Below are positions 1,332-45,155 of a DNA stretch of 55,825 nucleotides, piece by piece (within the stretch, counting starts at the first letter, position 1; the number at the start of each line of letters is the position of its first letter). The translations under genes and the position numbers were made by a program. The stretch is from assembly GCA_001778985.1 (NCBI GenBank), contig MFIU01000002.1, forward strand, positions 1-55,825. Reading direction: 5' to 3'. The notes below the pieces were generated by a model, which did not search any database, was not told where the DNA came from, and saw nothing but the letters and a program-made list of their open reading frames with translations. This stretch comes from Candidatus Giovannonibacteria bacterium RIFOXYD1_FULL_48_21. Lineage in GTDB: Bacteria; Patescibacteriota; Minisyncoccia; JACPKW01; UBA11713.

Positions 1332-1946
1332 ATGAGGGTCACTTGCAAAATTTGCCGGCGGCTGGGCCTGTCGGTCTGCGGCAGAGAGAAATGTGCTTTT
1401 AGACGCAAGCCCTATCCGCCGGGCGAGCACGGCCGTAGCGCTAAGTTCGCGAAAAGGCCCTCCGAGTACGGCCAGCAGCTTCGGGAGAAGCAGAAGCTGA
1501 AGTTTCTTTATAATCTTCGGGAAGTCCAGTTCCGAAATTACGTCGAGGAGGCGGAGCGCCGGAGCGGGGAGAGCGCGGAGAATCTGATTTCGCTTTTGGA
1601 AGCGCGCCTCGACAACGCGGTTTTTCGGCTGGGATTTTTCCCCTCCCGCGCCCAGGCGCGCCAAGCCGTTTCGCACGGACATTTTTTGGTGAATGGCCGG
1701 AAGGTGACGATTCCCTCTCTTCGGATACGCCGGGGCGATAAAATTTCCATCCGGCCGCAAAGCCTCGGCAAAGGGATTTTCCGGGACCTCGATATCTATC
1801 TCAAAAAATACAACCCGCCCGCCTGGCTTTCCTTGGATAAAGATAAGAAAGAAGGCGAAGTTCTCGGCGCCCCGAGTCTCGCCGCGGACCCCGCTCTCGC
1901 CAGCAATATAAATTTAAAAGCCATCGTCGAATTTTATTCGCGTTAA
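1332..1946 (+). CDS. rpsD: 30S ribosomal protein S4
   Basis: It has a Zn-finger-type N-terminus (CKICRRLG), YGQQLREKQKLKF.Y, and an S4 RNA-binding domain (RLDN.VFRLGF..SR.QARQ.V.HGH..VNG). Confidence 0.95.
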   Translation: MRVTCKICRRLGLSVCGREKCAFRRKPYPPGEHGRSAKFAKRPSEYGQQLREKQKLKFLYNLREVQFRNYVEEAERRSGESAENLISLLEARLDNAVFRLGFFPSRAQARQAVSHGHFLVNGRKVTIPSLRIRRGDKISIRPQSLGKGIFRDLDIYLKKYNPPAWLSLDKDKKEGEVLGAPSLAADPALASNINLKAIVEFYSR

Positions 1947-3305: not shown

Positions 3306-3650
3306 ATGAGCGAGAAGATTATTCTAGACGTCAAAGGAAAATCGCTGGGACGCGCCGCTTCCCAGGCGGTTTTACTTTTGCGCGGGAAAAACCGGCCGGA
3401 TTTCGAGCCGAGAATTCGTCCCAGCCACGAAGTCGCGATTAAAAATGTGCTTGAGCTTGGAATTCATCCCGCGAAAATGAGAACCAAAGTTTACACTCGT
3501 TATTCCGGCTACCCAGGAGGGCTTAAAGAAATCACGCTTGAAAAATTATGGGCCAAAAATCCGAAAGAAGTTTTCCGCAAGGCGGTTTGGGGCATGCTTC
3601 CCAAAAACCGCTCGAGAAAGCATATTATAAAAAATTTAAAATTTGAATGA
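3306..3650 (+). CDS. rplM: 50S ribosomal protein L13
   Basis: Motifs are GK.LGR.AS.....LRGK.RP.F.P and YTRYSGYPGG.KE. The start is either ATG 3306 or TTG 3300 (the ORF track uses 3300). Confidence 0.92.
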   Translation: MSEKIILDVKGKSLGRAASQAVLLLRGKNRPDFEPRIRPSHEVAIKNVLELGIHPAKMRTKVYTRYSGYPGGLKEITLEKLWAKNPKEVFRKAVWGMLPKNRSRKHIIKNLKFE

Positions 3651-4165
3651 AGAAGAAAGCCCCAACCAAGAAGATTATAAAGAAGGCTCGCCCCGTTAGA
3701 AGTAAGCCCCGACCTGATGTCGGGGCTGCCGCCCCGCTGGTGGCGGAGCGGACTTCTAACGGGGTGAAGAAGTCAGAGAGGTATCTGGAAGCCGTGGGCC
3801 GCAGAAAAACATCGGTGGCCAGGGTGCGCCTTTACGAGGGCGAGAAATTTTCCATTTTCATAAATCAAAAGCCGTTTGAAAATTATTTCCCAACCTACGA
3901 ACTTCGGCATATTGTCGAAGAGCCGCTCTCGAAAACGAACTTGACTCGAGATTTTTCAATCAGCGTGAAAGTCAACGGGGGAGGGATTCACTCCCAGGCT
4001 GAGGCGGTTCGGCACGGGATTTCCCGGATGCTCGAAAAACGCGAGCCCGGGCTCCGAAAAATTTTAAAGCCTCTGGGTTTTCTGAAACGCGACCCTCGGA
4101 TGAAAGAACGCCGCAAATTCGGCTTGAAAAAGGCAAGAAAAGCCCCGCAATGGGCAAAGAGGTAA
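3647..4165 (+). CDS. rpsI: 30S ribosomal protein S9 with an extended N-terminus
   Basis: The core is AVGRRKTSVARVRL..G.G...IN and the C-terminus is GGG...QA.A.RHGISR.L......R..LK..GFL.RD.R.KERRK.GLKKARKAPQ..KR. An N-terminal extension of about 45 aa includes the palindromic element at 3691-3764. Confidence 0.93.
   Translation: MKKKAPTKKIIKKARPVRSKPRPDVGAAAPLVAERTSNGVKKSERYLEAVGRRKTSVARVRLYEGEKFSIFINQKPFENYFPTYELRHIVEEPLSKTNLTRDFSISVKVNGGGIHSQAEAVRHGISRMLEKREPGLRKILKPLGFLKRDPRMKERRKFGLKKARKAPQWAKR
3691..3764 (+). repeat. palindromic element (class A) embedded in-frame in rpsI
   Basis: The 13-bp terminal inverted repeats are CCCCGTTAGAAGT (3691-3703) and ACTTCTAACGGGG (3752-3764). An inner 9-bp hairpin AGCCCCGAC/GTCGGGGCT lies at 3705-3727. 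The same termini recur at 34789-34838, and the left end recurs at 44078-44090. Confidence 0.8.
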
Positions 4166-4176
4166 GATTTTATTGA

Positions 4177-4203
4177 TTAGCACTCTTGACTGGAGAGTGC
4201 TAG
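4177..4203 (+). promoter_or_regulatory. CIRCE operator (HrcA binding site)
   Basis: The sequence TTAGCACTC-N9-GAGTGCTAG differs from the consensus TTAGCACTC-N9-GAGTGCTAA at one base. It lies directly upstream of hrcA. Confidence 0.9.
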
Positions 4204-4213
4204 TTGATATAAT
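4186..4213 (+). promoter_or_regulatory. sigma-70-type promoter overlapping CIRCE
   Basis: The -35 is TTGACT (4186-4191), the spacer is 16 bp, and the -10 is TATAAT (4208-4213). The -10 ends 6 nt before the hrcA ATG, which suggests a leaderless transcript. Confidence 0.7.
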
Positions 4214-4219
4214 GGTTTT

Positions 4220-4948
4220 ATGCCAAGGTTAGCCGAGCGGGAGGAAAATATCCTAGATTTTATTATTCGGGATTATGTTGAGAGCGCCGTTCCGGTTTCT
4301 TCCGGACGGGTTTTTGACGCCGGGCTTTTTAAGGCCTCTCCAGCCACGATTAGGAACGCCATGCTGGAATTGGACGACGAGGGATTTTTGGAACAGCCGC
4401 ATACTTCGGCCGGCCGGGTCCCCACGGACAAGGCTTACCGGTATTTCGTGGATAATTTGATGGCATATCACGAACCGGCCAGGCACGAGCGGGAAATTTT
4501 TGACGAGCTCGCCCGCCGGATAACGAAACGCCATGAGCTTTTGTTCGAGAACTTCGGGAAGATGATGGCGGAGGAGCTGGGCCTTTTTGCTTCCGTGGCT
4601 AATTTCGGCGCCAAAAAAAGAGTTCGCGGTTTTGGGTTTGAAGAGCTTTTGAGAGAACCGGAGTTTGAAAACCATGACCTGTCCGTGGAATTCGCGAGAG
4701 TCGTGGACCATCTGGACGAGGCCGCCCGGCAGTACCTCGAGAGCTCTTCGGAAGAAAAGCCGGAGGTGTTCATCGGCGAGGAAAACCCGCTTAAGGCGGC
4801 GCGCTCTTTCAGCACCGTGGCTTTTCGTTTTTCTGACGGCAAGATTGGAAAGTGCGTGGTCTTCGCGATGGGCCCCAAGCGCATGGACTATGAACGGATT
4901 TCTTCCGTTTTGGATTTCGCGACCCGGGATATAATGGAACGGATATAA
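4220..4948 (+). CDS. hrcA: heat-inducible transcription repressor HrcA (short form, 242 aa)
   Basis: Motifs are PVSSGRV.......SPATIRN.M.ELD.EGFLEQPHTSAGRVPTDKAYRYFVD.L and a C-terminal GPKRMDYER. It is preceded by CIRCE and followed by grpE-dnaK-dnaJ. Confidence 0.9.
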   Translation: MPRLAEREENILDFIIRDYVESAVPVSSGRVFDAGLFKASPATIRNAMLELDDEGFLEQPHTSAGRVPTDKAYRYFVDNLMAYHEPARHEREIFDELARRITKRHELLFENFGKMMAEELGLFASVANFGAKKRVRGFGFEELLREPEFENHDLSVEFARVVDHLDEAARQYLESSSEEKPEVFIGEENPLKAARSFSTVAFRFSDGKIGKCVVFAMGPKRMDYERISSVLDFATRDIMERI

Positions 4949-26412: not shown

Positions 26413-29400
26413 TTGGAATCAAGGCAACACAACGTAGCCGACCTAATGAAGCGGCTTGGGCTTTCCAAGACCACGATTTTGCGTTGGGAAAAGGAAGGCA
26501 AGATACCGCCAGGACGCCGCGACGAGCTTGGCTGGCGCTGGTGGACCGAGGAGGAATTTGAGGGAATAGCAAAACTTACTTCTTCGGATTTTTCGAGGGA
26601 ATTTTTACCGAAACTTTCCAAAAAACCTTCAATAAAAGAAACGCCGCGTTTTACCTTTCCTGCCTTGCCGGCCTTGTCGGCAGACAGGCCGGCAGGCAGG
26701 CCTTCTTTTCGTACTTTCTTGGCGCCGGCTCTTTTGGCGGTTTTGGTTTTTAGCGCGGTCGCGGCTGATTTCGTTTCTTATTTCGAGAACGCGAGCTTCG
26801 TCGCCTCCGAGCGCCTTCAATACTCCGCTTTGTATCTGCGAAATCTAGTTCCGGCCAAACCCAGCGTCCAGTTTTCGTTCCGGCTCCCTGACGATTATTT
26901 TCTCGCCATGGGCCAGGACTTGAAGTCCTCGCTTCCGGAAATCGGCGCAGGCCTCCAAGACGGAATTTTTGAATTGCGGCGCTTGGTCGCCAATGTCGAA
27001 CCTCCAAGGTTCGACATTCGAATTTTGCGCCCAAGAAAATTTTCTCTTAGTCCCGGCTATTTTAGTCAAAGCGGCGCGCTTTTGGCAAATTTGACCGGCG
27101 AGGCCGAGAACTTTTTTTACCGCGTCGGCCAAACTTTAAACCGAATTTTTGATGAAAACAAACAATTTGTTTACTCGCTTTTTGCGCCTGCCTCGCCGGA
27201 AGGCGGGCCTCCAAATTTAACATCCGATGTTGGAGGAGAAACACCGGGCGTCGCTCCGGTTCTGTCTTCCGAGACCCAGTTTTTGCGTTTTGAGATTGAC
27301 TCTCTGCGTAAGGAGCTCGAAGCGCTTCGGGCCGCAGGAGTTCGTCTGGAAGGCGAAAAAGTAGTCGAGCGTATTTTTGAGCGGACTTTGGCCGAATTGC
27401 CTTCAGGCGACCTTGACGCGAAACTCGCTTCTTTGAATCAAGCCTTGCGCGAGGAGATTCTGACGGTCAGACGAGCCTTGGACGAAAAAACCCAGGCGAA
27501 CTTCAACGCCCTCGCGCTCACGCAGAGAATAAATACCCTGGGCCCGGTTTCAATTTCTTCTCCAACCATCTCAACTCCCACCATTACCGGTCAGGTGGAT
27601 AGTCTTACGGTGCGAACTCTGACCATTACCGGAAGCTGTTCCGGCTGCGGCGGCGGAAGTTCTAATACCAGCGGCTGGACCGATGACGGAACTATCGTCA
27701 GGCTCACTGATATCGGGGATTTGGTTGGGATCGGAACTTCAAGCCCTTACGCAAAATTGTCAGTGGTGGGAGAAGTCGTGGCAGCTTCCTTCACTGCGAC
27801 TTCCACCACCGCTACCTCAACTTTTTCCTGGGGAATTCAAACCCCGGCTTTAAATGTAACTTCGACAAGCGCGACTTCTACCTTTTCAAACGGCTTAAGA
27901 CTTTCAGGAGGCTGTTTTGAGCTTTCCAATGGCACCTGCGCTGGTTCAGGTGCTTCCATTGGCGGAGCAATTTCCGGAGGAACTTCGGGCTCTGTTCTTT
28001 TCGTGGACGCGAGCGCGAATCTGGCCCAAGACAACGCGAACCTTTTTTGGGATGACACGGGAAATATCCTAAGGGTTCTCAATGCCTCCAGCACCAATGC
28101 TTCGGTGATAGGCACTTTGACTATTGGCGGAACCGCGACCACGACCTTGTCAGGCAACACCGCCACCAGCACTTTCGCAGCCGGACTCGCTCTGACCGGC
28201 ACCTTGGATGTGAATAGCTCGACTGCCACTTCCACCTTTGCCAACGGCTTGAGGGTGGAAGGAGGCTGCGTCACTGTGGCTGGAGCATGCCTGACCAACC
28301 TGGGCCAGTCAATTGACCTGGCTTCTGAAGTCAGCGGCGTCCTGCCGATTGCGAATGGCGGCACCAACAATTCTTCAGCTTACACTTCTGGCTCTGTGAT
28401 TTTCTCAAATGGAACCTCTCTCACCCAGGACAATTCAAATTTCTTCTTTGACGACGCCAACAACCGGCTGGGAATCGGAACCACCTCTCCTTGGGGAATC
28501 CTTTCAGTGGAATCCTCTGCCGCGGCCGGAGCAACAAATCCCATCTTCGTGGTCTCTGACCAAGGGACCAGCACTCCCTTCCTGATCGTGGAAGGAAATC
28601 GAGGTTTTGTCGGGATTGGTACGACCACGCCGCAAGCCCAACTAGGTCTTAGTACTTTCTCCGGCTTCCCAAGCTTTATGGTTGGCTCTTCCACGACCCA
28701 GTTTTTGATTGACAAAAACGGCAACGTAGGCATCGGGACGACGGGGCCAGGGGCGGCACTTGATACAAAAATTACTTCTACTGCTGGACAAGGTACACTG
28801 ATTGCTCAATTTGGTTCTCAAACGTCCGCCAGAATCAGGCTGTACGATGAAACATCCACATTGGGTCCGGCAATAGATTTCAACGCTGGGAATGTTGGAC
28901 GAATCACTGGGGCAGGGAACATTGCAATAATGCCAACCAACAACGGCAACGTCGGCATCGGGACGACGAGTCCGGGGCAATTGCTCTCGGTCGCGGGGGA
29001 TATTTTGGGAAATAATATTATCGGTTCTTACTTTACAGCCACTTCGACGACCGCCACCAGCACTTTCGCAGCCGGACTCGCTCTGACCGGCACACTCGAC
29101 GTAAACAGCACTTCAGCCACGAGCACTTTCGCCAACGGCATCAGAATAGAAGGCGGGGGATTGACTGCTTCCACCCTCACTTCCTGCACAGCTCTGGAAA
29201 CGGATGCAAACGGAAATGTCCTTTGCGGTTCTGATGCCACGGGTTCAGGAGTAGGGATAGGCGACACAGTTACCTCCGGCACTACCGGCTCGATACTATT
29301 TGTCGGCTCCGGCCCCGTGTTAGCCCAGGACAACGCCAACCTTTTTTGGGATGACACCAACAACCGGCTGGGCATCGGAACGACGAGCCCGTGGGCAAAA

Positions 29401-31638
29401 CTTTCTGTAAATAATTACAGCTCCGGAGCTTCATCAGTTCCTCTGTTTACCGTAGCTTCTTCAACCGGAACTGGCGCAACTTCCACCGCGTTTATTATTA
29501 ATTCAGTCGGCAATATCGGCATCGGGACGACGAGTCCAAATGCTCTACTGCATCTTTTTTCAACAGTAGCTTCAAACAATAATCCCCAGTTGATTCTTCA
29601 AAATTATGCTGCCGGAGGTTATTTGCCCAGTATTTTATTTCAAGGCAATGAGGCCGGTTCACCAAATACTTATTCTGTTTCAAGAATAGTCGGCGGTTTT
29701 GAAGGTGGAGCAAATTGGTCAGATGCGGCTCTTGGTTTTGACGTGGGACAAACGTTGTCAAGGGTAATAACCCTTAAAGGTACCGGCAACGTCGGCATCG
29801 CTTCTACGACTCCTTTCTCTACTCTTTCCGTAAACGGTAACGTATGGCTTAACTCGAATATCCTAAACATCGCTTCTTCTTCTGCCTCCACTTTAACTGT
29901 TAATTATTTATCACGCGCGACTACCACAATTCCTTCCAATCAAATCTACGCCTGGTCAATCGCCACCTCCACCACCGCTTCTCCCTTGCTCACTTTCAAC
30001 ACCAATGGGCCCTACGCCACAACCTCAATAAACGGCGGGTTCGTAATCGATTCTGGAGCGGTTAATTATGATTCATCAAGCGGCATAATTTCCGCGGATT
30101 CAATTCAGACCGGGCCTATGGGTTTTGACACCGACGCCGGAATTGTTTCCTGGATTGACATGCCGGTCGCGACCACTTCGACTTCCAGAATTTCCATGAG
30201 CTATTCGGCGCAGATTGATTCAATTCCGATTCTGACGGTCTATGGAGAATCAACTGCGGGCGGAGGCGTTTCCACCACCACCGTGGGTATCGGCACAACT
30301 ACCCCGACCTGGCTTTTGCATCTTGCTTCCACCACGCCCTACCTCGCGCTCTCGGACACTGATGCCGGGCTCGACCAGAAGCACTGGCTCATTTCCAATC
30401 AATCCGGCTCCTTGAGATTCGGGACTTCCTCGGACGCGAATCCCTTTTCCACCAGCACCAATTTTATGCTCCAGAGGGGCGGGAACGCCGCGGTGCCGAA
30501 AGGCGCTTTCTGCGTGGATGACGATAACAGCGAGTGTCCGGTCGGTGCAATCCAGGGACGTTTGTACTCCATCAACGCCACGGTGCTTACGGACGACATC
30601 GCGGAGTTCATGCGCTCGGCAGAAAGCTTGGAGCCGGGGGATATCGTGATTCCTGATTCTGATTTCAAAAACAAGACCGCACGAAGTTACGAGCAGGAGC
30701 GAAGAAGCCGTGATTTGGGAACCACACTCGGCTTGGACGAGATTGGAGTTAAAAAATCTGTCAAACCTTACGAGTCCGCCATCCTTGGAGTTATTTCCAC
30801 CAAGCCGGGAATCTCGCTTGGAGGCTTCGAACCCACTCTGCAGGATTATGAAGTTACGCTCGCCGGACGGGTTCCGGTGAAAGTTTCGCTCGAGGGCGGC
30901 GCGATTAAAATCGGAGACAGGATTACTTCGAGTCCGATACCGGGAGTGGGCATGAAGGCAACAAGTTCCGGAATCACCATCGGAATTGCGCTTGAAGATT
31001 TCAACCCTTCGACAGGCTCAGGGCAAGCGTCCTCCACCGAGAAAATTCTGGTTTTTGTAAATCTCGGCTACTCCAAACTTGACGCCTCCATTCAAGGCGG
31101 CGAGATTGTCGAGCCCTCGGCTGTAGCCCTACGGGCGAAGCTGGACGGCGAAGGAGAATCGGCTTTCTGGGGGATTGACCAAACTTCCGGACGCATTAAA
31201 TTCATCTCGCCCTTGGACCTCAACGATTTTGATATCGTGAACGTCCGAGCGATTCTGGGCTCCGGAGGGAAATGGTCGATTGATTTCTCCGGCCGCCTCA
31301 CAGCCGAGGAAGTGTATACCAAAAAACTTTGTCTGGAAGAAGTCTGCGTGACCAAAGAGGAGCTGAAGAAACTTCTGGACTTAGCCGGTTCGGCGAGCCA
31401 GGCTTCGTCGCCTGAGGAGCAAACCTCCGATGAAGGTTTACCGGAGGAGGGGCCTCCGGAAGAGCCCCAGCCCTCCTCAACCGCACCCGGGAAAACATCC
31501 GATGTTTTAACTTCTTCAACATCGGATGTTGAGGAGGGTGCGGTTTCACCGGGCGAAGAGAGCCCGCCGCCGGAGCCGCCTCCTGAGCCCGAGCCTCCTC
31601 CAGTTTCTGATACCAGTACCACCACTCCGGCAACATGA
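26413..31638 (+). CDS. giant (1,741 aa) membrane-anchored protein: N-terminal MerR-type HTH, one TM helix, coiled coil, tail-fibre-like Thr/Ser/Gly-rich repeats, and a Pro/Glu-rich tail
   Basis: It is a single uninterrupted ORF. The HTH is LGLSKTTILRWEKEGKIPPGRRDELGWRWWTEEEF and the TM segment is FLAPALLAVLVFSAVAADFV. There are nine G(I/V)G(T/S)(T/S)xP..L(S/H)(V/L) motifs and six ATSTF(A/S)xG(L/I) motifs. The start is TTG 26413 or ATG 26446. Confidence 0.8.
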   Translation: MESRQHNVADLMKRLGLSKTTILRWEKEGKIPPGRRDELGWRWWTEEEFEGIAKLTSSDFSREFLPKLSKKPSIKETPRFTFPALPALSADRPAGRPSFRTFLAPALLAVLVFSAVAADFVSYFENASFVASERLQYSALYLRNLVPAKPSVQFSFRLPDDYFLAMGQDLKSSLPEIGAGLQDGIFELRRLVANVEPPRFDIRILRPRKFSLSPGYFSQSGALLANLTGEAENFFYRVGQTLNRIFDENKQFVYSLFAPASPEGGPPNLTSDVGGETPGVAPVLSSETQFLRFEIDSLRKELEALRAAGVRLEGEKVVERIFERTLAELPSGDLDAKLASLNQALREEILTVRRALDEKTQANFNALALTQRINTLGPVSISSPTISTPTITGQVDSLTVRTLTITGSCSGCGGGSSNTSGWTDDGTIVRLTDIGDLVGIGTSSPYAKLSVVGEVVAASFTATSTTATSTFSWGIQTPALNVTSTSATSTFSNGLRLSGGCFELSNGTCAGSGASIGGAISGGTSGSVLFVDASANLAQDNANLFWDDTGNILRVLNASSTNASVIGTLTIGGTATTTLSGNTATSTFAAGLALTGTLDVNSSTATSTFANGLRVEGGCVTVAGACLTNLGQSIDLASEVSGVLPIANGGTNNSSAYTSGSVIFSNGTSLTQDNSNFFFDDANNRLGIGTTSPWGILSVESSAAAGATNPIFVVSDQGTSTPFLIVEGNRGFVGIGTTTPQAQLGLSTFSGFPSFMVGSSTTQFLIDKNGNVGIGTTGPGAALDTKITSTAGQGTLIAQFGSQTSARIRLYDETSTLGPAIDFNAGNVGRITGAGNIAIMPTNNGNVGIGTTSPGQLLSVAGDILGNNIIGSYFTATSTTATSTFAAGLALTGTLDVNSTSATSTFANGIRIEGGGLTASTLTSCTALETDANGNVLCGSDATGSGVGIGDTVTSGTTGSILFVGSGPVLAQDNANLFWDDTNNRLGIGTTSPWAKLSVNNYSSGASSVPLFTVASSTGTGATSTAFIINSVGNIGIGTTSPNALLHLFSTVASNNNPQLILQNYAAGGYLPSILFQGNEAGSPNTYSVSRIVGGFEGGANWSDAALGFDVGQTLSRVITLKGTGNVGIASTTPFSTLSVNGNVWLNSNILNIASSSASTLTVNYLSRATTTIPSNQIYAWSIATSTTASPLLTFNTNGPYATTSINGGFVIDSGAVNYDSSSGIISADSIQTGPMGFDTDAGIVSWIDMPVATTSTSRISMSYSAQIDSIPILTVYGESTAGGGVSTTTVGIGTTTPTWLLHLASTTPYLALSDTDAGLDQKHWLISNQSGSLRFGTSSDANPFSTSTNFMLQRGGNAAVPKGAFCVDDDNSECPVGAIQGRLYSINATVLTDDIAEFMRSAESLEPGDIVIPDSDFKNKTARSYEQERRSRDLGTTLGLDEIGVKKSVKPYESAILGVISTKPGISLGGFEPTLQDYEVTLAGRVPVKVSLEGGAIKIGDRITSSPIPGVGMKATSSGITIGIALEDFNPSTGSGQASSTEKILVFVNLGYSKLDASIQGGEIVEPSAVALRAKLDGEGESAFWGIDQTSGRIKFISPLDLNDFDIVNVRAILGSGGKWSIDFSGRLTAEEVYTKKLCLEEVCVTKEELKKLLDLAGSASQASSPEEQTSDEGLPEEGPPEEPQPSSTAPGKTSDVLTSSTSDVEEGAVSPGEESPPPEPPPEPEPPPVSDTSTTTPAT
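26659..26700 (+). repeat. GC-rich palindromic element (class B) in-frame in the giant ORF
   Basis: The arms CCTGCCTTGCCGGCC (26659-26673) and GGCCGGCAGGCAGG (26687-26700) are inverted repeats with one indel. The loop contains TGTC..GACA. The element encodes PALPALSADRPAGR, between the HTH and the TM helix. Confidence 0.7.
28159..28202 (+). repeat. 44-bp exact intragenic direct repeat (second copy at 29050-29093)
   Basis: ACCGCCACCAGCACTTTCGCAGCCGGACTCGCTCTGACCGGCAC is identical at both positions. It encodes TATSTFAAGLALTGT. Confidence 0.9.
31005..31029 (+). repeat. 25-bp interspersed element CCCTTCGACAGGCTCAGGGCAAGCG (copy 1, in the giant ORF, read as PSTGSGQA)
   Basis: It is identical to 31961-31985 and sits in the same reading frame in both genes. 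Variants occur at 1-16 and 47449-47465. Confidence 0.9.
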
Positions 31639-32193: not shown

Positions 32194-32562
32194 ATGAACC
32201 AATTTTCAAATCAGAAATACGATTTAGAAGAAAGAACAGCGCAATTCGGTGAAGCTATAATTAAGCTTTGTCGAAGCGTCAATCAAGATGTTATTGCGAA
32301 ACCGATTGTTTCCCAATTGATTCGTTCGGCTACCAGTATCGGCGCGAACTACATGGAAGCAAATGGCGCAAGTTCCAAAAAGGACTTTATCAATAAAATA
32401 TTTATTTGCAAAAAAGAAGCGCAAGAGACAAAGCACTGGCTACGCATGTTGGTCGTTTGTGCGCCTGATAAAAACTTAGAGGCAAGAAAGCTGTGGCAAG
32501 AATGCCAAGAGCTGACTTTGATATTCCAAAAAATCGCTTCGTCAGCGCGAAATAAAGTTTGA
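32194..32562 (+). CDS. four-helix-bundle protein (23S rRNA intervening-sequence protein / DGR Avd-like family)
   Basis: YDLEERT..F...I......V........SQLIRSATSIGANYMEANGA.SKKDF..K...C.KEA.ET.HWL is typical of the TIGR02436/PF05635 family. The start is taken at ATG 32194; the ORF track uses TTG 32164. Confidence 0.8.
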   Translation: MNQFSNQKYDLEERTAQFGEAIIKLCRSVNQDVIAKPIVSQLIRSATSIGANYMEANGASSKKDFINKIFICKKEAQETKHWLRMLVVCAPDKNLEARKLWQECQELTLIFQKIASSARNKV

Positions 32563-34766
32563 AAATTATTATGTTTGAGAATTCACTGAAAATTGTAAAT
32601 TGTAAATTGATAATTCCGCTTTTGGTTGTTTTGGTTTTTGTATTGTCGCCAAAAGCGGTTGATGCCGCCTTACTCATAAACCGCCCTCTTTACATCGGTC
32701 TAACCTCCGGCCTCGTCGGCTACTGGTCTTTTGACGGGCCGGATGTTGCCGGGATTCCCAGCACAGCAACCACACCTGGGACAGTTTACGATCGCTCTGG
32801 CAACGGAAATAACGGGCTATACTGGAATGCCACTGGCACGCCTCCCGCCATCGGCCGCATCGGCCAGGCGCTGGAATTCAAAGGAGCGCCCACTCGTACG
32901 TACGTAAAAGTTTCCAATTTCTGTTCACAGATTTCTAATAATGCGGGCGCTATCTCGGTTTGGATAAAAGCTGCAGTAATTACAACTGTTGTGAATGACA
33001 ACCATTATATTTTCAATTGCGGTTCGGGCCACAGCCCCTCCTTAGTGATTATAGGCGGGAGCACCCCAGCGCTTAGGTTTATAAAAAGTACTAGCAATAG
33101 TAACGTAATGTCGTCACCCGCCGCTAATCGTTGGTATTATATAGTTGCTACATGGGATACAAACGTACAACGCGTTTATGTTGATTCGGTTCAAACAGAT
33201 TCTGATGCTATAGCTTCAATATCTCCTTCTGGAGATGCAGCGATAGGCACTTTTGCTACCATTCCTCAAAATAACAATTATTTCAACGGCATCATTGACG
33301 ACTTCCGCGTCTACAACCGCGCGCTAACGGCCGACGAAATCAAGCGGCTATACAAAATCGGGGCGACGCTGAAAGTCAATAAACCCAGCTATACCGGTCT
33401 TGATTCCGGCCTCGTCGGATACTGGTCTTTTGACGGGCCGGATATGTACAACAACACTGCGCTTGACCGCTCCGGGCAGGGCAACAACGGCACCCTCACC
33501 AACGGCCCCAAACGCGCTATCGGCAAAATCGGCCAGGCGCTGGAGTTTGACGCCTTTTCTGGGACGCATTCTCATGTACAAGTAGGAGATAAAGCGAGTT
33601 TAGACTTTGGAACAAGCGACTTTACGCTTTCTGCGTGGATAAAAGCCAAAGCCACTCAGGATTCATTTCCATCAATAATACATAAAGGGGCGACCGCAGG
33701 AAGTGGTTCTCCAGGTTATTGGTGGATCCTCTCTTCTGGCATATCAAAATTTTTTATGAGCAACAGTACGAATAGAGTAGAAAGTATAGCGATTACAAAT
33801 CTTAGAGACAATAGCTGGCATCATGTTTCTGTAGTGGTTGACCGCGACGGCATGACAACTCATTACATCGATGGAATAGTTGATGACGCAGATAATTTAA
33901 GCTCTTACAGTGCCAGCGATATAAATGCAACAGAAGAGTTTAGTATAGGTGGAAGAGATACCGGAGGCTCGTTGGAATTTACCGGCCTCATTGATGACGT
34001 CCGCATCTACAACCGCGAGCTTTCTCCGGACGAAATCAAGCGGCTCTACCGCATCGGGGCGACGCTGAAGGTTAATAAACCCCTTGCCACCGGCTCTCTG
34101 ACCTCCGGCCTCGTCGGCTATTGGTCTTTTGACGGGCCGGATATGGCGGGAAACACGGCTTTTGACCGAAGCGGGCAGGGCAACAACGGTACGCTCACCA
34201 ACGGCCCTGTTCGCACTCTCGGCAAAATCGGCCAGGCGCTGGATTTTGATGGGAGTAATGATTATGTGGGTATGGGCGATCCTACAAGCGGCATTTTGGA
34301 TTTTTCTGATACTCAAAGCTTTACAATTTCTGTGTGGTCATATCGTACCGGTCCAAATACTATTGCTCAGCGATTAGTTGCTAAAAATCAAACTGGAGCA
34401 GCACAAAACGGTTATCGTTTGATTTATGAGACAGATGATAAGTACACGATGCGTGTTGATGACTCCGTTAATGGGGTTCAGGTTACCTCATCAGCTATGA
34501 ACACATTAAATATCTGGCACCATGTCGTTGGCGTCATTGATAGAGCAAATCAAATTTTGCGGCTATATGTTGACGGTGTGGAAAATGGAACCCCTCTTGA
34601 TATTTCAGCCGTAGGAAGCCTAGCAAATGCACTAAACTTCGATATAGGAGTTGCTAGCAACTTAACGGCTGGTAGTTTTGTGGTTGGTAAAATTGACGAT
34701 GTCCGCGTCTATAACAGGGTATTAACTAGCGATGAAATAAAACGTTTATATAATCTTGGCCGATGA
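32559..34766 (+). CDS. secreted or anchored protein with three tandem LamG (concanavalin-A-like lectin) modules
   Basis: It has an N-terminal hydrophobic anchor. The junction LVGYWSFDGPD...DRSG.GNNG......IGKIGQAL.FDG occurs three times and IDD.R.YNR.L...EIKRLY occurs three times. The start is TTG 32559 or ATG 32571. Confidence 0.8.
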   Translation: MKIIMFENSLKIVNCKLIIPLLVVLVFVLSPKAVDAALLINRPLYIGLTSGLVGYWSFDGPDVAGIPSTATTPGTVYDRSGNGNNGLYWNATGTPPAIGRIGQALEFKGAPTRTYVKVSNFCSQISNNAGAISVWIKAAVITTVVNDNHYIFNCGSGHSPSLVIIGGSTPALRFIKSTSNSNVMSSPAANRWYYIVATWDTNVQRVYVDSVQTDSDAIASISPSGDAAIGTFATIPQNNNYFNGIIDDFRVYNRALTADEIKRLYKIGATLKVNKPSYTGLDSGLVGYWSFDGPDMYNNTALDRSGQGNNGTLTNGPKRAIGKIGQALEFDAFSGTHSHVQVGDKASLDFGTSDFTLSAWIKAKATQDSFPSIIHKGATAGSGSPGYWWILSSGISKFFMSNSTNRVESIAITNLRDNSWHHVSVVVDRDGMTTHYIDGIVDDADNLSSYSASDINATEEFSIGGRDTGGSLEFTGLIDDVRIYNRELSPDEIKRLYRIGATLKVNKPLATGSLTSGLVGYWSFDGPDMAGNTAFDRSGQGNNGTLTNGPVRTLGKIGQALDFDGSNDYVGMGDPTSGILDFSDTQSFTISVWSYRTGPNTIAQRLVAKNQTGAAQNGYRLIYETDDKYTMRVDDSVNGVQVTSSAMNTLNIWHHVVGVIDRANQILRLYVDGVENGTPLDISAVGSLANALNFDIGVASNLTAGSFVVGKIDDVRVYNRVLTSDEIKRLYNLGR
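32586..32613. repeat. right AT-rich inverted repeat flanking the four-helix-bundle gene
   Basis: CTGAAAATTGTAAATTGTAAATTGATAA lies within the 5' end of the LamG ORF. See 32155-32183. Confidence 0.55.
32706..34142 (+). repeat. LamG module junction blocks recurring with a 699-bp period
   Basis: TCCGGCCTCGTCGG(C/A)TA(C/T)TGGTCTTTTGACGGGCCGGAT occurs at 32706, 33405 and 34104, a spacing of 699 and 699 bp. ATCGGCCAGGCGCTGGA is also present three times. Confidence 0.9.
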
Positions 34767-34773
34767 GCAAATT

Positions 34774-34894
34774 GTTCGCATCTATTTACCCCGTTAGAAA
34801 TAGGACGCGCACGCAAGCGTCCGCGACTTCTAACGGGGCAAGCCGCGCGCTTTCGGCGGATGAAATCAAGCGGCTATACAACCTTGGGAGATAG
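34774..34894 (+). pseudogene. relic 3' end of a LamG module (VRIY / SRALSADEIKRLYNLGR*) interrupted by a palindromic element
   Basis: GTTCGCATCTAT (VRIY) lies at 34774-34785 and AGC CGC GCG CTT TCG GCG GAT GAA ATC AAG CGG CTA TAC AAC CTT GGG AGA TAG at 34841-34894. It is GC-rich and shares 20 nt exactly with module 1 (GAAATCAAGCGGCTATACAA). The two parts are separated by a 55-nt insert. Confidence 0.7.
34789..34838 (+). repeat. palindromic element (class A), copy 2
   Basis: The termini are CCCCGTTAGAAAT ... ACTTCTAACGGGG, with an inner hairpin GGACGC-N8-GCGTCC. The termini match the rpsI copy (3691-3764). Confidence 0.8.
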
Positions 34895-34926
34895 TAATAA
34901 GGACTAAAATATGCTATGATTAAAAA

Positions 34927-35175
34927 ATGGGAGCTCATAAAACCAAAGAAGCAATCCCATTTCGCCCAAGCCTTTTTTGGGACGCGGATCCGGCCACAAT
35001 AGACCCGGATAAAAATGCCAAGTATATTATTGAGCGGATAATGGATTTTGGTAATGATCAGGAAGCCCGCTGGATATATAGGCGATATCCTCGCCCGTTT
35101 CTTCGTGATGTTGTAAAAAAATCGCGGAGTCTTCATCCGCAATCCAGAGTATTGTGGGAAGCTCTGACGAAGTAA
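34927..35175 (+). CDS. small protein partnered with an AbiEii-type nucleotidyltransferase (putative antitoxin)
   Basis: The 82-aa product has the motif LFWDADPATIDPDKNAKYIIERIMDFG. It overlaps the downstream toxin-like gene by 22 nt. By my recollection this family commonly precedes AbiEii/DUF1814 genes. Confidence 0.6.
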   Translation: MGAHKTKEAIPFRPSLFWDADPATIDPDKNAKYIIERIMDFGNDQEARWIYRRYPRPFLRDVVKKSRSLHPQSRVLWEALTK

Positions 35176-35831
35176 CAAAAGAGTGGCATACGGATGCCCT
35201 TCCGGCGGAAACAAAACGCGCGCTGGATTTTTTGTCTCGTGCGGAATGGTTGCGCCAATCTTCGTGGTATCTTGCCGGCGGCACTGCTTTAGCATTGCAT
35301 GTTGGCCATCGGGAATCGCTTGATCTTGATTTTTTTACACAAGATAAGTCTGTAGAAGTTTCTCTTATTTCTGGTCATTTTTCAAACGATGTATGGCAAA
35401 CGGAGATTCTTCGTGAGGGAACGTTGTACGGGAAGTTCCTCGGCGCAAAAATAAGCTTTATTTTGTATCCATTTTTTCACCGAAGATCAGCGCCCCGTGA
35501 ATATGGAGCAATTCGGGTGCTCGCGCCTTCTGATGTGGCAGTTATGAAAATAATAGCCATTAGCCAGCGCGGCAAGAAACGCGATTTTGTAGATCTCTAC
35601 TGGTATGCGCTTCATCAAGAGCCAATACTAGATGTGATTCGCCGTTTGCCGGACCAATATCCAACTGTTGCTCATGATTTCCACCATATTCTAAAAAGCA
35701 TGATGTATTTTGCAGATGCGGAAGCCGATCCTATGCCTACCTTATTTTTCAAGGCAGATTGGAAAACGATTAAAGCATATTTTCAAAAAGTGGTTCCTGA
35801 AATTACAAAAGAATTGCTCCGGTTAAAATAA
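35154..35831 (+). CDS. nucleotidyltransferase AbiEii/AbiGii toxin family protein
   Basis: WYLAGGTALALHVGHRESLDLDFF is the NTase signature of the family. The start is GTG 35154. Confidence 0.75.
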   Translation: MGSSDEVTKEWHTDALPAETKRALDFLSRAEWLRQSSWYLAGGTALALHVGHRESLDLDFFTQDKSVEVSLISGHFSNDVWQTEILREGTLYGKFLGAKISFILYPFFHRRSAPREYGAIRVLAPSDVAVMKIIAISQRGKKRDFVDLYWYALHQEPILDVIRRLPDQYPTVAHDFHHILKSMMYFADAEADPMPTLFFKADWKTIKAYFQKVVPEITKELLRLK

Positions 35832-42391: not shown

Positions 42392-43405
42392 ATGGCTTTA
42401 TTCATAAAAAAACTTGGAATTGATTTGGGCACCGCGAACACGCTGGTGTTTGTTCCCAATGAAGGCGTGGTTTTGAATGAACCTTCGGTGGTGGCGGTTT
42501 CAGTGCCGGACAATAAAATTTTGGCGGTGGGGGTTGAGGCTAAAGTTATGGTCGGCAAAACTCCGGATACCATCGTGGCTTATCGTCCCATGAAGGACGG
42601 AGTAATCGCCGACTATCGCGTGACCGAAGCGATGCTGCGCTACTATATTAATAAAGCGCTCGGCCGCTGGAATCTTTTCAAACCGGAAGTGATGGTTTCG
42701 GTTCCGGCCGGAGTCACTTCCACCGAGCGGCGTTCCGTGGTGGAGGCGGCCATCAAAGCCGGAGCCAGAGCCGCCTATGTGATGAAAGAGCCGATTCTGG
42801 CCGCCATCGGAGCCGGCATTCCTATTTATGAACCCACGGGACACATGGTGGTGGATATCGGCGGCGGCACCACTGATTCGGCGGTAATATCGCTTGGCGG
42901 CATCGTGGCTTCCGCTTCCCTGAAAGTCGCCGGCAATCGCATTGACCAGGCGATCGCCGACTACATCAAAAAGACTTTCAACCTCGCCATCGGAGAACGG
43001 AGCGCCGAGGAGATTAAAATCGCTATCGGCTCCGCCATTCCGGTGGAAAAGGAAGACAGCTGGGAGGTTAAAGGGCGGGACTTCTTGACCGGCCTGCCGC
43101 GAGCAACCAAGGTGAGTTCCAATGAAATTGTGAAAGCCATTGACGGCGAATTGAAAGAAATAATGAAAACGATTAAGGGAGTTCTGCAGGAAACTCCGCC
43201 GGAGCTCGCGTCGGACATTATTGACCAGGGAATCGTCATGACCGGCGGCACCTCCCTTCTAAGAAATATCGACGAGCTGGTTTATCGTTCTACCGGGGTT
43301 AAGGCGCGAATCGCGGAAGAACCTCTTTTGTGCGTGGCCAAAGGAACCGGGATTGCGCTCGAGCATCTGGAGGTTTATAAAAAGAGTATTCTCGCCAAGC
43401 GATGA
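42392..43405 (+). CDS. mreB: rod-shape-determining protein MreB (paralog 1)
   Basis: GIDLGTANTLV, RPMKDGVIAD, VDIGGGTTD.AVISLGGIV, G.V.TGGTSLL. Confidence 0.92.
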   Translation: MALFIKKLGIDLGTANTLVFVPNEGVVLNEPSVVAVSVPDNKILAVGVEAKVMVGKTPDTIVAYRPMKDGVIADYRVTEAMLRYYINKALGRWNLFKPEVMVSVPAGVTSTERRSVVEAAIKAGARAAYVMKEPILAAIGAGIPIYEPTGHMVVDIGGGTTDSAVISLGGIVASASLKVAGNRIDQAIADYIKKTFNLAIGERSAEEIKIAIGSAIPVEKEDSWEVKGRDFLTGLPRATKVSSNEIVKAIDGELKEIMKTIKGVLQETPPELASDIIDQGIVMTGGTSLLRNIDELVYRSTGVKARIAEEPLLCVAKGTGIALEHLEVYKKSILAKR

Positions 43406-44076
43406 TTTTAGGGAAAAATCCGGAAAAATTTCTAAAAAAGTTTTTCTCCGCCGCCTCGGCCCAGGCCTTTCTTTTGGTCGGCGGCGACGAAGGCCTGGAG
43501 AATCTTTTGATTCGGTTCTTGAGCCGCGGAGCCCAGACTGAATTTGACCTTCGGGTTTACGGAGGAGATTCGCTCAAGATTGACGAAGCCCGCGAAATCC
43601 ATCGGGCCGCGGGCCAAAGCGCTCTGGCCGGAGCGAAAATATTTCTGCTTAAAAATAATTTTATCGCGCCGGAAGCCGAGGCCACGCTTTTGAAGACTTT
43701 GGAGGAACCCTACCCTGATACCTATTTCATCATCTCGCTCGCTTCCGAGGCCGCGCTCTCGCCCCCGCTTCTCTCCCGGCTTACCGTTTTTAAAACCTCT
43801 CCGCCCGAGCTTGAAAAAAACAAAAAAGCTTGGAAGCCTGGTTTGGGCGAAGCCGCCTCGCTCGCCAAGGACCGAAGGGAAACCGAGGATTTTTTCAGGC
43901 GGCTCGAATGGTGGCTCGAGGAAAAACTTCAGGCCGCACCGCGGGAAAAGTTTCGGCTCTTGAGAAATTTTTTGGAAGACCTGCTCCAGACCAAAAAACT
44001 TTTTCTTGAAAAAACTTATTCCAGCCGCATGCTCTTGGAGCATCTGATTATCTCTAAATTCTACCTGGAGCCATGA
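43402..44076 (+). CDS. holB: DNA polymerase III delta'-like subunit (no Walker A)
   Basis: Motifs are AFLLVGGDE, K.D..REI and A.A.LLKTLEEPYPDTYFI....... ..LLSRLTVF. Confidence 0.6.
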   Translation: MILGKNPEKFLKKFFSAASAQAFLLVGGDEGLENLLIRFLSRGAQTEFDLRVYGGDSLKIDEAREIHRAAGQSALAGAKIFLLKNNFIAPEAEATLLKTLEEPYPDTYFIISLASEAALSPPLLSRLTVFKTSPPELEKNKKAWKPGLGEAASLAKDRRETEDFFRRLEWWLEEKLQAAPREKFRLLRNFLEDLLQTKKLFLEKTYSSRMLLEHLIISKFYLEP

Positions 44077-45155
44077 GCCCCGTTAGAAATAAATCCCGCG
44101 GGGCGATAACGCTGGGAATGGTGATCGCGGTCGTGATTATCGCCGTGATTCTGATAGTGACTTTGATTGTCTTGTGGCCGGTTTTTAAAGGAGAGAAAGG
44201 GGTGAGCCCCAGCCAGAGCGTCTTATTCCGGAGCGAAGACGGCGCGAACACCTGGAAACCCTTGGAGAAGTTCCCGGGCGGAGAAATTTTGACTTTAGAT
44301 TTTGACGCCCGCGACCCGTCTACTCTTTTGGTCGGGACGAGGCGCCGAGGCCTGTGGCAGGGTAAAACCTCCGGCGAAGAGTGGCGGCAATTTCCCGGAG
44401 GGCTCGGCGAGAACTCCCAAATTTTCGACTTACTGGATTTGCCCACCGCCGAAAAGCTCATCGCTTTGGTTTTATTTTCAAATCGCGGCCGGGTCATCAA
44501 GCTTGAGGAAGATACCAGGACCGAGCTCTTGTTCACGCCGCTTGAGCGCTTTGCTTATTTCCAGGGAGACCTGACGCCGGACGGAAAATTGAGGGTGATT
44601 GGTTCGGACGGCGGTTTTTATGAATCGCGAAATCAAGGCGCCACTTGGCGCTCCCTGGCTCGTTTTCAAGAAGGTTTGGCGCTGATGGCGGTAAACTCCG
44701 CCAATGCTGGCGAAATTTGGGTGTTGGATTCCAGGGGTTCACTCTTTTACAGCCAGAGTGGGGGAATTTCCTGGAAAGATTTGACCGACGGCTTAAAAAA
44801 TTTTCAGGGCGCCATGGAGGCAGAAGTTATTTTATTCGAACCGAGAGCCGGCCTTCTTTATCACGGCTCCAGGCACGGACTTTTGAAGTCGTCTGACCGC
44901 GGCCGGAGCTGGGAGAGGGTTAATCTTACTTTGGCTCCGGAGGTGCTTCCGGTTTCGGCTTTGGCGGCGGATCCTTCCGACCCGAATAAGCTCATCGTCG
45001 GCGCTCAAGGCCAGCTTTATATTTCTCAAGACGGCGGGATAAGCTGGCGAGGGATTCAGCTGGCTTCAAGCGGCAGTATCGCCGCGATTTTATTCGACCC
45101 TAAAAATTCGAACAATGTTTTCATCGGCCTTAAGACCGGCCAGCGCTTGAGATGA
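44073..45155 (+). CDS. membrane-anchored BNR/Asp-box repeat beta-propeller protein
   Basis: It has an N-terminal TM segment and five SxDxGxxW boxes (SEDGANTW, SRNQGATW, SQSGGISW, SSDRGRSW, SQDGGISW). Codons 2-6 are encoded by a partial class A element (44078-44090). Confidence 0.7.
   Translation: MSPVRNKSRGAITLGMVIAVVIIAVILIVTLIVLWPVFKGEKGVSPSQSVLFRSEDGANTWKPLEKFPGGEILTLDFDARDPSTLLVGTRRRGLWQGKTSGEEWRQFPGGLGENSQIFDLLDLPTAEKLIALVLFSNRGRVIKLEEDTRTELLFTPLERFAYFQGDLTPDGKLRVIGSDGGFYESRNQGATWRSLARFQEGLALMAVNSANAGEIWVLDSRGSLFYSQSGGISWKDLTDGLKNFQGAMEAEVILFEPRAGLLYHGSRHGLLKSSDRGRSWERVNLTLAPEVLPVSALAADPSDPNKLIVGAQGQLYISQDGGISWRGIQLASSGSIAAILFDPKNSNNVFIGLKTGQRLR

Follow-up and report, generated by a model that had tools for sequence, protein, structure and literature searches.

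Rickettsia palindromic elements (RPEs) form sequence families of about 100-150 bp that are found in Rickettsia only and have no mobilising enzyme assigned to them (Ogata et al. 2000, reviewed in PMC10969869), and selfish palindromes that reside in frame inside genes have been treated as a curiosity of that genus. We analysed a stretch of 55,825 nt (hereafter the window) from Candidatus Giovannonibacteria bacterium RIFOXYD1_FULL_48_21, a Parcubacteria (Giovannonibacteria-like) bacterium of the candidate phyla radiation (CPR) from groundwater, in which a 74-nt palindrome lies inside rpsI, the gene of ribosomal protein S9. A first-pass annotation of the window had likened this palindrome to the RPEs. 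The likeness holds for behaviour, i.e. short selfish palindromes reside in frame in unrelated, often essential genes, where they are apparently translated with the host protein and tolerated, but it does not extend to membership of the RPE families. The rpsI palindrome is very probably a copy of a family of non-autonomous transposons (miniature transposable elements with inverted repeats, MITEs) that is usually neutral to the reading frame and survives in tolerant regions of proteins. This family is much wider than one genome, and occurs in many uncultivated phyla under a simple codon rule.

A family of short inverted-repeat elements

The palindrome (copy 1) and its host gene occupy the following positions in the window.

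3647..4165, + strand: rpsI, ribosomal protein S9, 172 aa (Ribosomal_S9, PF00380), host gene of copy 1
3691..3764, no strand assigned: MITE copy 1, 74 nt, from sequence, inverted-repeat and folding analysis
3691-3703: left end of copy 1
3705-3727: hairpin 1 of copy 1
3729-3751: hairpin 2 of copy 1
3752-3764: right end of copy 1

The sequence check agreed with the perfect 13-bp terminal inverted repeats described in the first-pass annotation (CCCCGTTAGAAGT at the left end, ACTTCTAACGGGG at the right end) and with its hairpin of a 9-bp stem (arms 3705-3713 and 3719-3727); the further GC pairing that it had noted is the GC-rich hairpin 2. The RNA of copy 1 had a minimum free energy of -53.9 kcal/mol (z = -8.25) and none of 200 shuffled sequences was as stable, in the comparison that the annotation had proposed. 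The opposite strands were alike, each at about -54 kcal/mol (z = -8.3 and -8.7). Copy 1 makes up codons 16-39 of rpsI, within the lysine-rich N-terminal extension, and its in-frame reading (frame 2) within the open reading frame (ORF) 3647..4165 is PVRSKPRPDVGAAAPLVAERTSNGV, i.e. PVRSK...TSNG. The rpsI copy would thus be translated as part of S9, with PDVGAAAPLVAER and TSNGVK as predicted tryptic peptides of the protein; the metatranscriptomes on record were tiny and had no word share with the window. The order of genes around rpsI is the usual one (rpsM-rpsK-rpsD-rpoA-rplQ-rplM-rpsI), the ATG of rpsI overlaps the stop codon of rplM (ATGA), and the sequence of copy 1 was unchanged across five further assemblies. 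Logan contigs from runs with partial word share ended at the palindrome when placed on rpsI, and no information was gained from them.

We scanned one genome per species (GTDB) for the pattern CCCCGTTAGAA-N25-55-TTCTAACGGGG with exact ends. At least 120 loci were found; by our calculation (596 Gb x 31 gap lengths / 4^22), chance would give about 1. The counts given below rest on 126-128 copies among the matches listed, in which the requirement of exact ends inflates the apparent conservation of the inverted repeats. The listed copies come from metagenome-assembled and single-cell genomes of at least eight phyla, including Patescibacteria (many classes), Planctomycetota (Pirellulales, Phycisphaerae), Omnitrophota, Elusimicrobiota, Nitrospirota, Desulfobacterota, Riflebacteria, Ratteibacteria and a few others. 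Viral vectors were considered and rejected, as 2.9 million viral contigs gave just two matches.

The family is defined by terminal inverted repeats of 11-13 bp (CCCCGTTAGAA(R)(N)), about 25-55 nt of free interior between them and a 4-bp target duplication. Its copies measure 40-90 nt (up to 117), have no coding capacity, and are dispersed, with 2-5 copies each in several loci and genomes; nested and tandem copies also occur. The repeats are perfect over 13 bp in copy 1, and the 11-mer recurs in at least 126 further copies. End variants carry compensated changes in both arms, and several of these have perfect duplications. Interiors are unrelated between subfamilies, and only 31 of the 128 listed copies have interiors that fold better than shuffled sequences; hence, the two GC hairpins of the window copy are a trait of its subfamily. 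Sequence and concept searches of open-access papers and preprints retrieved no description of the family, or of GIY-YIG units bounded by terminal inverted repeats, and Rfam gave no match at gathering score (best score 18 bits, against thresholds of 49.5-90).

These data also bear on the possibility that the palindrome is a cis-acting RNA of the rplM-rpsI operon (for instance an attenuator of translation, or a site through which a ribosomal protein regulates its own operon) and is not mobile. This operon is autoregulated in E. coli, and a hairpin of the stability reported above lies only 45 nt into rpsI. However, the palindrome is absent from rpsI of all relatives examined, the same ends and duplications occur in unrelated genes and phyla, Rfam contains no matching family, and most listed interiors are no more structured than their shuffles. 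A regulatory RNA is therefore largely refuted and very improbable.

Identical 4-nt direct repeats flank 74 of the 126 listed copies, against 0-3 copies for repeats of 3, 5 or 6 nt. The duplicated site has the form Y-N-N-R in all 74 cases (T or C at position 1, A or G at position 4). Furthermore, G is favoured before the site and C after it, which yields a two-fold symmetric target, G/YNNR/C. The self-complementary sites TTAA and TATA, either of which would extend the palindrome, are found in none of the 74 duplications, though T-N-N-A dominates.

Direct evidence of insertion came from a site that is empty in the window.

1333..1336, + strand: empty target site TGAG (ATGAG, rpsD start codon region), occupied in a related strain at the start of contig L004

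The initial part of contig L004 contains TGAG, a 117-nt element (TCCCGTTAGAA...TTCTAACGGGA) and a second TGAG, with the element positioned exactly on the start codon of rpsD. At this site, TGAG is present only once, and the element is missing, in the window, in the other assemblies and in four sequencing runs. At the contig start, the L004 strain is about 95% identical to the window. From its position 191 onwards, contig L004 is 99.97% identical to the window, and identity falls to about 95% over its first 74 nt and over the ~65 nt that follow the element; the start of the contig (L004:1-260) is probably an assembly join, at the repeat, between two co-occurring strains.

A second line of direct evidence is provided by six prepilin genes, in which copies lie at the GFT motif (cut after the G) and yield proteins of the form RGFT-element-GFTLVELL, for example MDKRRGFT-PLETKISDGASKRFLT-GFTLVELLVV. 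The state before insertion is evident because GFT is present on either side of the element, and the prepilin codons GGN-TTT-ACC fit the target G/TTTA/C. In these genes (L050, L065, L068, L106, L121, L123), the left junction GFTPLE mimics the pilin motif GFTxxE and the right junction regenerates GFTLVE. When TTTA and the left end are taken together (TTTACCCCGTTAGAA), 12 of 15 bases agree with a typical coding sequence for FTLIE. The proteins that recurred near copies were housekeeping proteins only (GspE/F, RarA, RimO, SerRS, Mfd, GuaA, BipA), and the recurrence of GspE/F is attributable to the prepilin hot spot.

The duplication argues against a REP/BIME palindrome spread by a RAYT (Y1 HUH) enzyme, and against an integron attC-like site, as neither REPs nor attC sites make one. 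Such an origin is suggested by the short, GC-rich palindromic form, and by a resemblance of GTTAGAA and TTCTAAC to the integron core sites, which are GTTRRRY and RYYYAAC. Yet the order GTTAGAA ... TTCTAAC is inverted relative to attC, the copies lack a GTAG or CGTC tag, and no RAYT or integrase gene was seen near them. We consider this the least probable of the explanations discussed here, with hardly any chance of being correct.

Other matches to the ends in the window are listed below.

34789..34838, no strand assigned: MITE copy 2, 50 nt, with the same 11-bp ends as copy 1
44076..44099, + strand: copy 3, truncated, with the left end and about 10 further nt, no right end; codons 2-9 (SPVRNKSR) of a BNR/Sortilin-type protein
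43288..43298, + strand: TTCTACCGGGG, right end with one mismatch, partnerless, inside mreB

With up to one mismatch allowed, the 11-mer end has six matches in the window against 1.17 expected, and none of 100 shuffled windows reached six. The mreB match is most likely due to chance and was left out of the copy count. The first-pass annotation was right that the element at 34789-34838 shares the termini of copy 1. Its inner hairpin is unlike that of copy 1 (folding z = -7.0), its flanks (TTTA and CAAG) show no target duplication, and it is a short derivative of the subfamily of the 117-nt L004 element, since the inner ends of both match. The annotation's further claim that copy 2 disrupts a LamG relic needs a qualification. 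Copy 2 lies in a dead C-terminal LamG relic 3' of ORF 32559..34766 that reads IVRIY, element, RALSADEIKRLYNLGR and a stop codon, with its halves in different frames; by our reading of the sequence, the relic would be dead with or without copy 2. The claim about the BNR protein was correct: in the BNR/Sortilin-type ORF 44073..45155, codons 2-6 derive from CCCCGTTAGAAATA at 44078-44091, which comprises the left end and three further bases, and they are read in the same frame as copy 1 (PVRNK versus PVRSK).

Alignment of rpsI orthologues, proposed in the annotation as a check, identified the segment as lineage-specific. In 40 S9 relatives, the lysine-rich start and the core are present and the PVRS...SNG segment is absent; among real contigs, the closest ones (L006, L007 and L133) carry rpsI DNA without either inverted repeat. 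Likewise, an orthologue of the BNR protein (P0126, L132) is 88% identical, with flanking DNA that is 91% identical, and is without copy 3: its N-terminus reads MKAGGAITLG against MSPVRNKSRGAITLG in the window, and the extra DNA is the element's left end. Judged by these comparisons, all three window copies are lineage-specific.

The annotation had described the rpsI palindrome as an in-frame insertion. It is in frame, but it is not a clean insertion. The window rpsI is longer than its relatives by just 15-24 nt, not by 78 nt. Given this small gain and flanks without a duplication, copy 1 must have taken the place of about 54-63 nt that belonged to the native N-terminal extension, perhaps because, after an insertion, two nearby copies recombined or adjacent DNA was deleted. 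Retention of native sequence as the interior of copy 1 (MAFFT, ~47%) was rejected, as in all other hosts the entire element is extra.

Besides the inflated conservation noted above, several observations weigh against the reading of the rpsI palindrome as an inserted MITE. The flanks of copy 1 are CTCG and TGAA; the fixed-length duplication is thus found in the family and in the filled/empty pair, and is missing from both the rpsI copy and copy 2. An entry with an S9 core 100% identical to the window (P0002) has a native extension (..KLVPKVETKVLKPELPPETKG..) in place of copy 1. We gave this entry little weight because its source is believed to be a protein-level assembly, possibly chimeric; its DNA is not on record, and when metagenome contigs were scanned with a degenerate pattern of the native extension, the sole matches were two contigs that were already known. 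Furthermore, GTG at 3765, taken as the start codon, would give an S9 of normal length (133 aa, MKKSERYLEAVG..), and gene callers also place rpsI starts within or past copy 1 (P0123, P0124). Because rpsI lacks a duplication and no near-identical empty allele was recovered as DNA, the history of copy 1 is inferred from the family.

The right flank of copy 1 (TGAAGAAG, 3765-3780) repeats the start of rpsI (ATGAAGAAG, 3647-3655). The region 3765-3780 looks like a start-codon docking site, but the left flank of copy 1 does not agree with such a reading.

Three further features of the window were recorded. DEIKRLYNLGR followed by a stop codon, the C-terminal motif of the LamG-domain protein (32559..34766), occurs twice in 34733-34895, at the intact gene end and in the relic 95 nt downstream. 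An AbiEii-type nucleotidyltransferase toxin gene (type IV toxin-antitoxin, PF08843) lies just 3' of copy 2 at 35154-35831. The largest ORF of the window (26413-31638) encodes 1741 aa.

The frame rule and the host genes

Length is 2 mod 3 in 94 of the 128 listed copies. A length of 3n+2 and a 4-bp duplication together add whole codons. Each inverted repeat contains a stop codon in one of its three frames, and the 3n+2 length makes the stop frames of both repeats coincide, so that two frames per strand are open. Positions chosen at random lie within an ORF in 71% of cases. Among the 112 evaluable copies, 33 reside in frame inside long ORFs (29-33 across counts), all 33 with a length of 2 mod 3, and five disrupt an ORF. 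We interpret this as insertions into genes being mostly purged, with survivors that are frame-neutral. The reading-frame bias that the first-pass annotation had proposed to examine was pronounced: copies in ORFs use the frame PVR..SNG in 37 cases, the frame PLE..LTG in 12 cases, and the stop frame in none. Together with the target duplications, the frame rule and the in-frame copies support its suggestion of an RPE-like family that tolerates translation, although this family is a property of many phyla and not of this genome.

According to Pfam, in-frame copies occur in DnaE, SecA, UvrA, CarB, PolA, HypF, a sulfatase and a class II aminoacyl-tRNA synthetase, and Mfd is a further in-frame host. 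The domain matches of DnaE, UvrA, PolA and HypF exceed the profile length by about the size of the insert. The first 25 codons of genes show an enrichment of copies of about five-fold over internal positions, a pattern that the rpsI and BNR copies fit. An insertion into a tolerant part of a protein (an N-terminal extension, a cleaved prepilin leader or a loop of a large enzyme) would leave the gene working, since whole codons are added and the ends contain a stop in just one frame.

The frame rule also bears on the idea that the palindrome is a mini-intron removed from the mRNA, or is skipped by the ribosome, and never appears in the protein. A perfect stem would bring the flanks together, and many copies lie in essential genes. 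Removal from the RNA would, however, make the length and the stop codons irrelevant, and it is hard to reconcile with the prevalence of 3n+2 lengths and the empty stop frame in ORFs; moreover, no ribozyme or intron family matched. We therefore regard removal or skipping as highly unlikely.

The addition of 17-27 residues to proteins such as DnaE, SecA, UvrA, Mfd and S9 bears on gene calling, protein-family alignments and structure prediction. It also affects phylogenomic marker sets, of which rpsI is a member, in CPR and other metagenome-assembled genomes.

GIY-YIG nuclease units with similar ends

In 0.93 Mb of DNA around 120 copies, we found no cargo between such ends other than a GIY-YIG gene, and no transposase. 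At L120:1616-1892, a unit of 277 nt has compensated ends (TCCCGTTAGAGAA and TTCTCTAACGGGA), a CTCA duplication and a sole ORF of 86 aa with a GIY-YIG domain, whose closest solved structure is the UPF0213 protein BH0048 (PDB 1ZG2, E 8e-7). This ORF has 4666 homologues. Among these, the best 120 show 78-99% identity and have a length of either 86 or 94 aa; all of the 120 carry a PF01541 record, and the catalytic Tyr/Arg/Glu positions were judged by eye. The inverted repeats of the unit are the first codons (MxPVRE) and the last codons (FLSLTG) of the nuclease ORF. The exact tail KRFLSLTG, i.e. the right repeat in frame, is present in 81 of the best 120, with one-residue variants in most others, and the 94-aa form (53 of the best 120) starts with M(N/S)PVRE.., i.e. 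the left repeat in frame. A subfamily of 87 aa, about 50% divergent, has the tail ..NYLTG and the ends CCCCGTGAGATA and TATCTCACGGGG. The LTG tail was kept in 33 of 150 diverse representatives of 7217 clusters. E. coli yhbQ was rejected as a model, as it has no such ends.

The same architecture was found in five independent contexts (L120, L134, L144, L145 and L149), with units of 277-278 nt and TGAx flanks that are identical in three of the five and otherwise near-identical. All five units sit on the start codon of a host gene and in host orientation, with ATGAx as left flank, and the ATG of the downstream host gene consists of the element's last A and the duplicated TG, overlapping the stop codon of the nuclease. 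We interpret these sequences as a unit that would use the host's translation signals and restore the host's start. The neighbourhoods of L134 and L149 are different, and in both the unit lies on the start codon of TspO/MBR, which points to an old shared insertion or a hot spot. At L154:975-990, the upstream ftsY-like gene ends in ..EMFTP with its stop codon (TGA) in the left inverted repeat, and the GIY-YIG element thus supplies the last residues of a host protein. Two further GIY-YIG genes on contig L066 have different repeats: a second small ORF at 4465-4768 with a 19-bp inverted repeat (CCCCGCACCTATTAAGCAC and GTGCTTGATAGGTGCGGGG) and its stop codon inside the right repeat, and a third at 4075-4308 with a 12-bp repeat (ACTCTTCACCCC and GGGGTGAAGAGT).

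The 277-nt units have the core CCCGTTAGA and the 4-bp duplication in common with the MITEs, and are putative autonomous partners of the latter. MITEs also occur nested and in frame within GIY-YIG ORFs (P0165, P0284 and P0289), the one in P0165 belonging to the subfamily of the window; an example of a nested copy reads ..ELIY-PVRGRSPRGGRSCAFGEVASNGV-YYEAC... We give the 86-aa GIY-YIG nuclease slightly less than an even chance of being the source of MITE mobility. Our proposal that the unit is a minimal transposon of an undescribed class (277 bp with two 13-bp repeats and one 86-aa nuclease gene, docking on start codons and spawning frame-neutral MITEs that settle in essential genes of many phyla) is tentative, and somewhat less likely than not to be correct.

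In the mechanism that we envisage, the unit would persist by docking at host start codons, where it would borrow the ribosome-binding site and the ATG, and it would rebuild the host ATG from its own last base and the duplication. The nuclease would recognise the ends and make the cuts, and host repair would fill the 4-nt gaps. The ends of the MITEs would be translatable since they are coding in the parent GIY-YIG unit.

Some observations run counter to a role of the nuclease. The unit ends differ from the window MITE ends at two positions (T for C at the tip and G for A at position 11), and no GIY-YIG gene was found in the window or near copies outside the CPR. GIY-YIG nucleases cut DNA and are not known to carry out joining or strand transfer; a GIY-YIG nuclease would thus not account for the chemistry of integration.

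The last point, and the copies outside the CPR, lend weight to the main rival explanation, in which the same MITE family is moved in trans by an unseen DDE transposase (e.g. IS1380/piggyBac-like) and the GIY-YIG gene is merely carried along or belongs to a second parasite between the same ends. Both the 13-bp inverted repeats and the duplication of 4 bp at a symmetric target are features typical of transposition by DDE enzymes. In piggyBac, the ends begin with CCC and the duplication is one of 4 bp (TTAA); IS1380 is its prokaryotic relative (PMC10813416). Against this, neither the window nor the DNA around the 120 copies contained a transposase or a longer element with the same ends. A search for full-length insertion sequences (IS), covering end pairs 150-4000 nt apart and generic inverted repeats with duplications, was negative as well. 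Longer end pairs with an apparent TTTA/TAAA duplication (L030, L032 and L091) were rejected, being coincidences of separate small copies or spanning ordinary genes. In addition, the GIY-YIG ORF is the only cargo seen; it spans precisely the whole unit, and the repeats serve as codons of the ORF itself, an architecture that holds in thousands of homologues and in subfamilies about 50% divergent, and TTAA is never the duplication. On balance, we consider a DDE transposase an unlikely source of the mobility, yet one to be taken seriously.

The GIY-YIG link provides a testable enzyme candidate, consisting of a small protein and a 13-bp site. If mobilisation by GIY-YIG is true, no autonomous transposon would have a smaller architecture than the unit, and elements with terminal inverted repeats would gain a new catalytic class, i.e. 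a cut-and-paste-like element driven by a GIY-YIG nuclease and not by a DDE, HUH, serine or tyrosine enzyme. The rebuilt host start codon is a case of a parasite neutralising its own cost.

Comparison with known systems

REP/BIME sequences with RAYT (PMC3733652) are short, GC-rich palindromes of high copy number, like the family described here. They are extragenic and tagged with GTAG or CGTC, and have neither duplication nor frame rule, whereas our family differs in each of these respects: its copies lie inside genes, are tagless and carry the 4-bp duplication.

The piggyBac/IS1380 elements (PMC10813416, PMC7351741) share 13-bp repeats starting with CCC, a 4-bp T...A duplication and potentially seamless excision. 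The family has the CCCC ends and a 4-bp duplication. In contrast, its target is YNNR and TTAA was found in none of the 74 duplications; there was no DDE/DDD transposase in the DNA searched around the copies. The likeness in the ends (CCC..TAGAA) amounts to no more than a lead.

The homing genes of the seg type in phage T4 and the UPF0213/YhbQ-type proteins resemble the 277-nt units in that a small, selfish GIY-YIG (PF01541) nuclease gene lies between host genes. Homing genes, however, have no inverted repeats or target duplications and are directed at one cognate site, whereas the 277-nt units have both and occur at many start codons.

Bacterial MITEs such as Correia/NEMIS, ERIC and QMITE of Coxiella (PMC10969869, PMC5896051) are similar in having terminal inverted repeats and a target-site duplication, and in being non-coding and multicopy with occasional in-frame fusions. 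The MITEs known to date each go with an IS family that has a DDE transposase, lie mostly between genes and are limited to a genus or family. In the family described here, by contrast, the interior is almost free, the 3n+2 rule is dominant, and the 11-bp end is common to many phyla.

Compared with the RPEs, finally, our elements are set apart by host (CPR, not Rickettsia), size and duplication, as judged without an RPE consensus alignment. The family shares the in-frame residence of RPEs in protein-coding genes, but differs in its sequence, its length of 47-77 nt (up to 117), its 4-bp duplication, its distribution over at least eight phyla, and its candidate autonomous partner.

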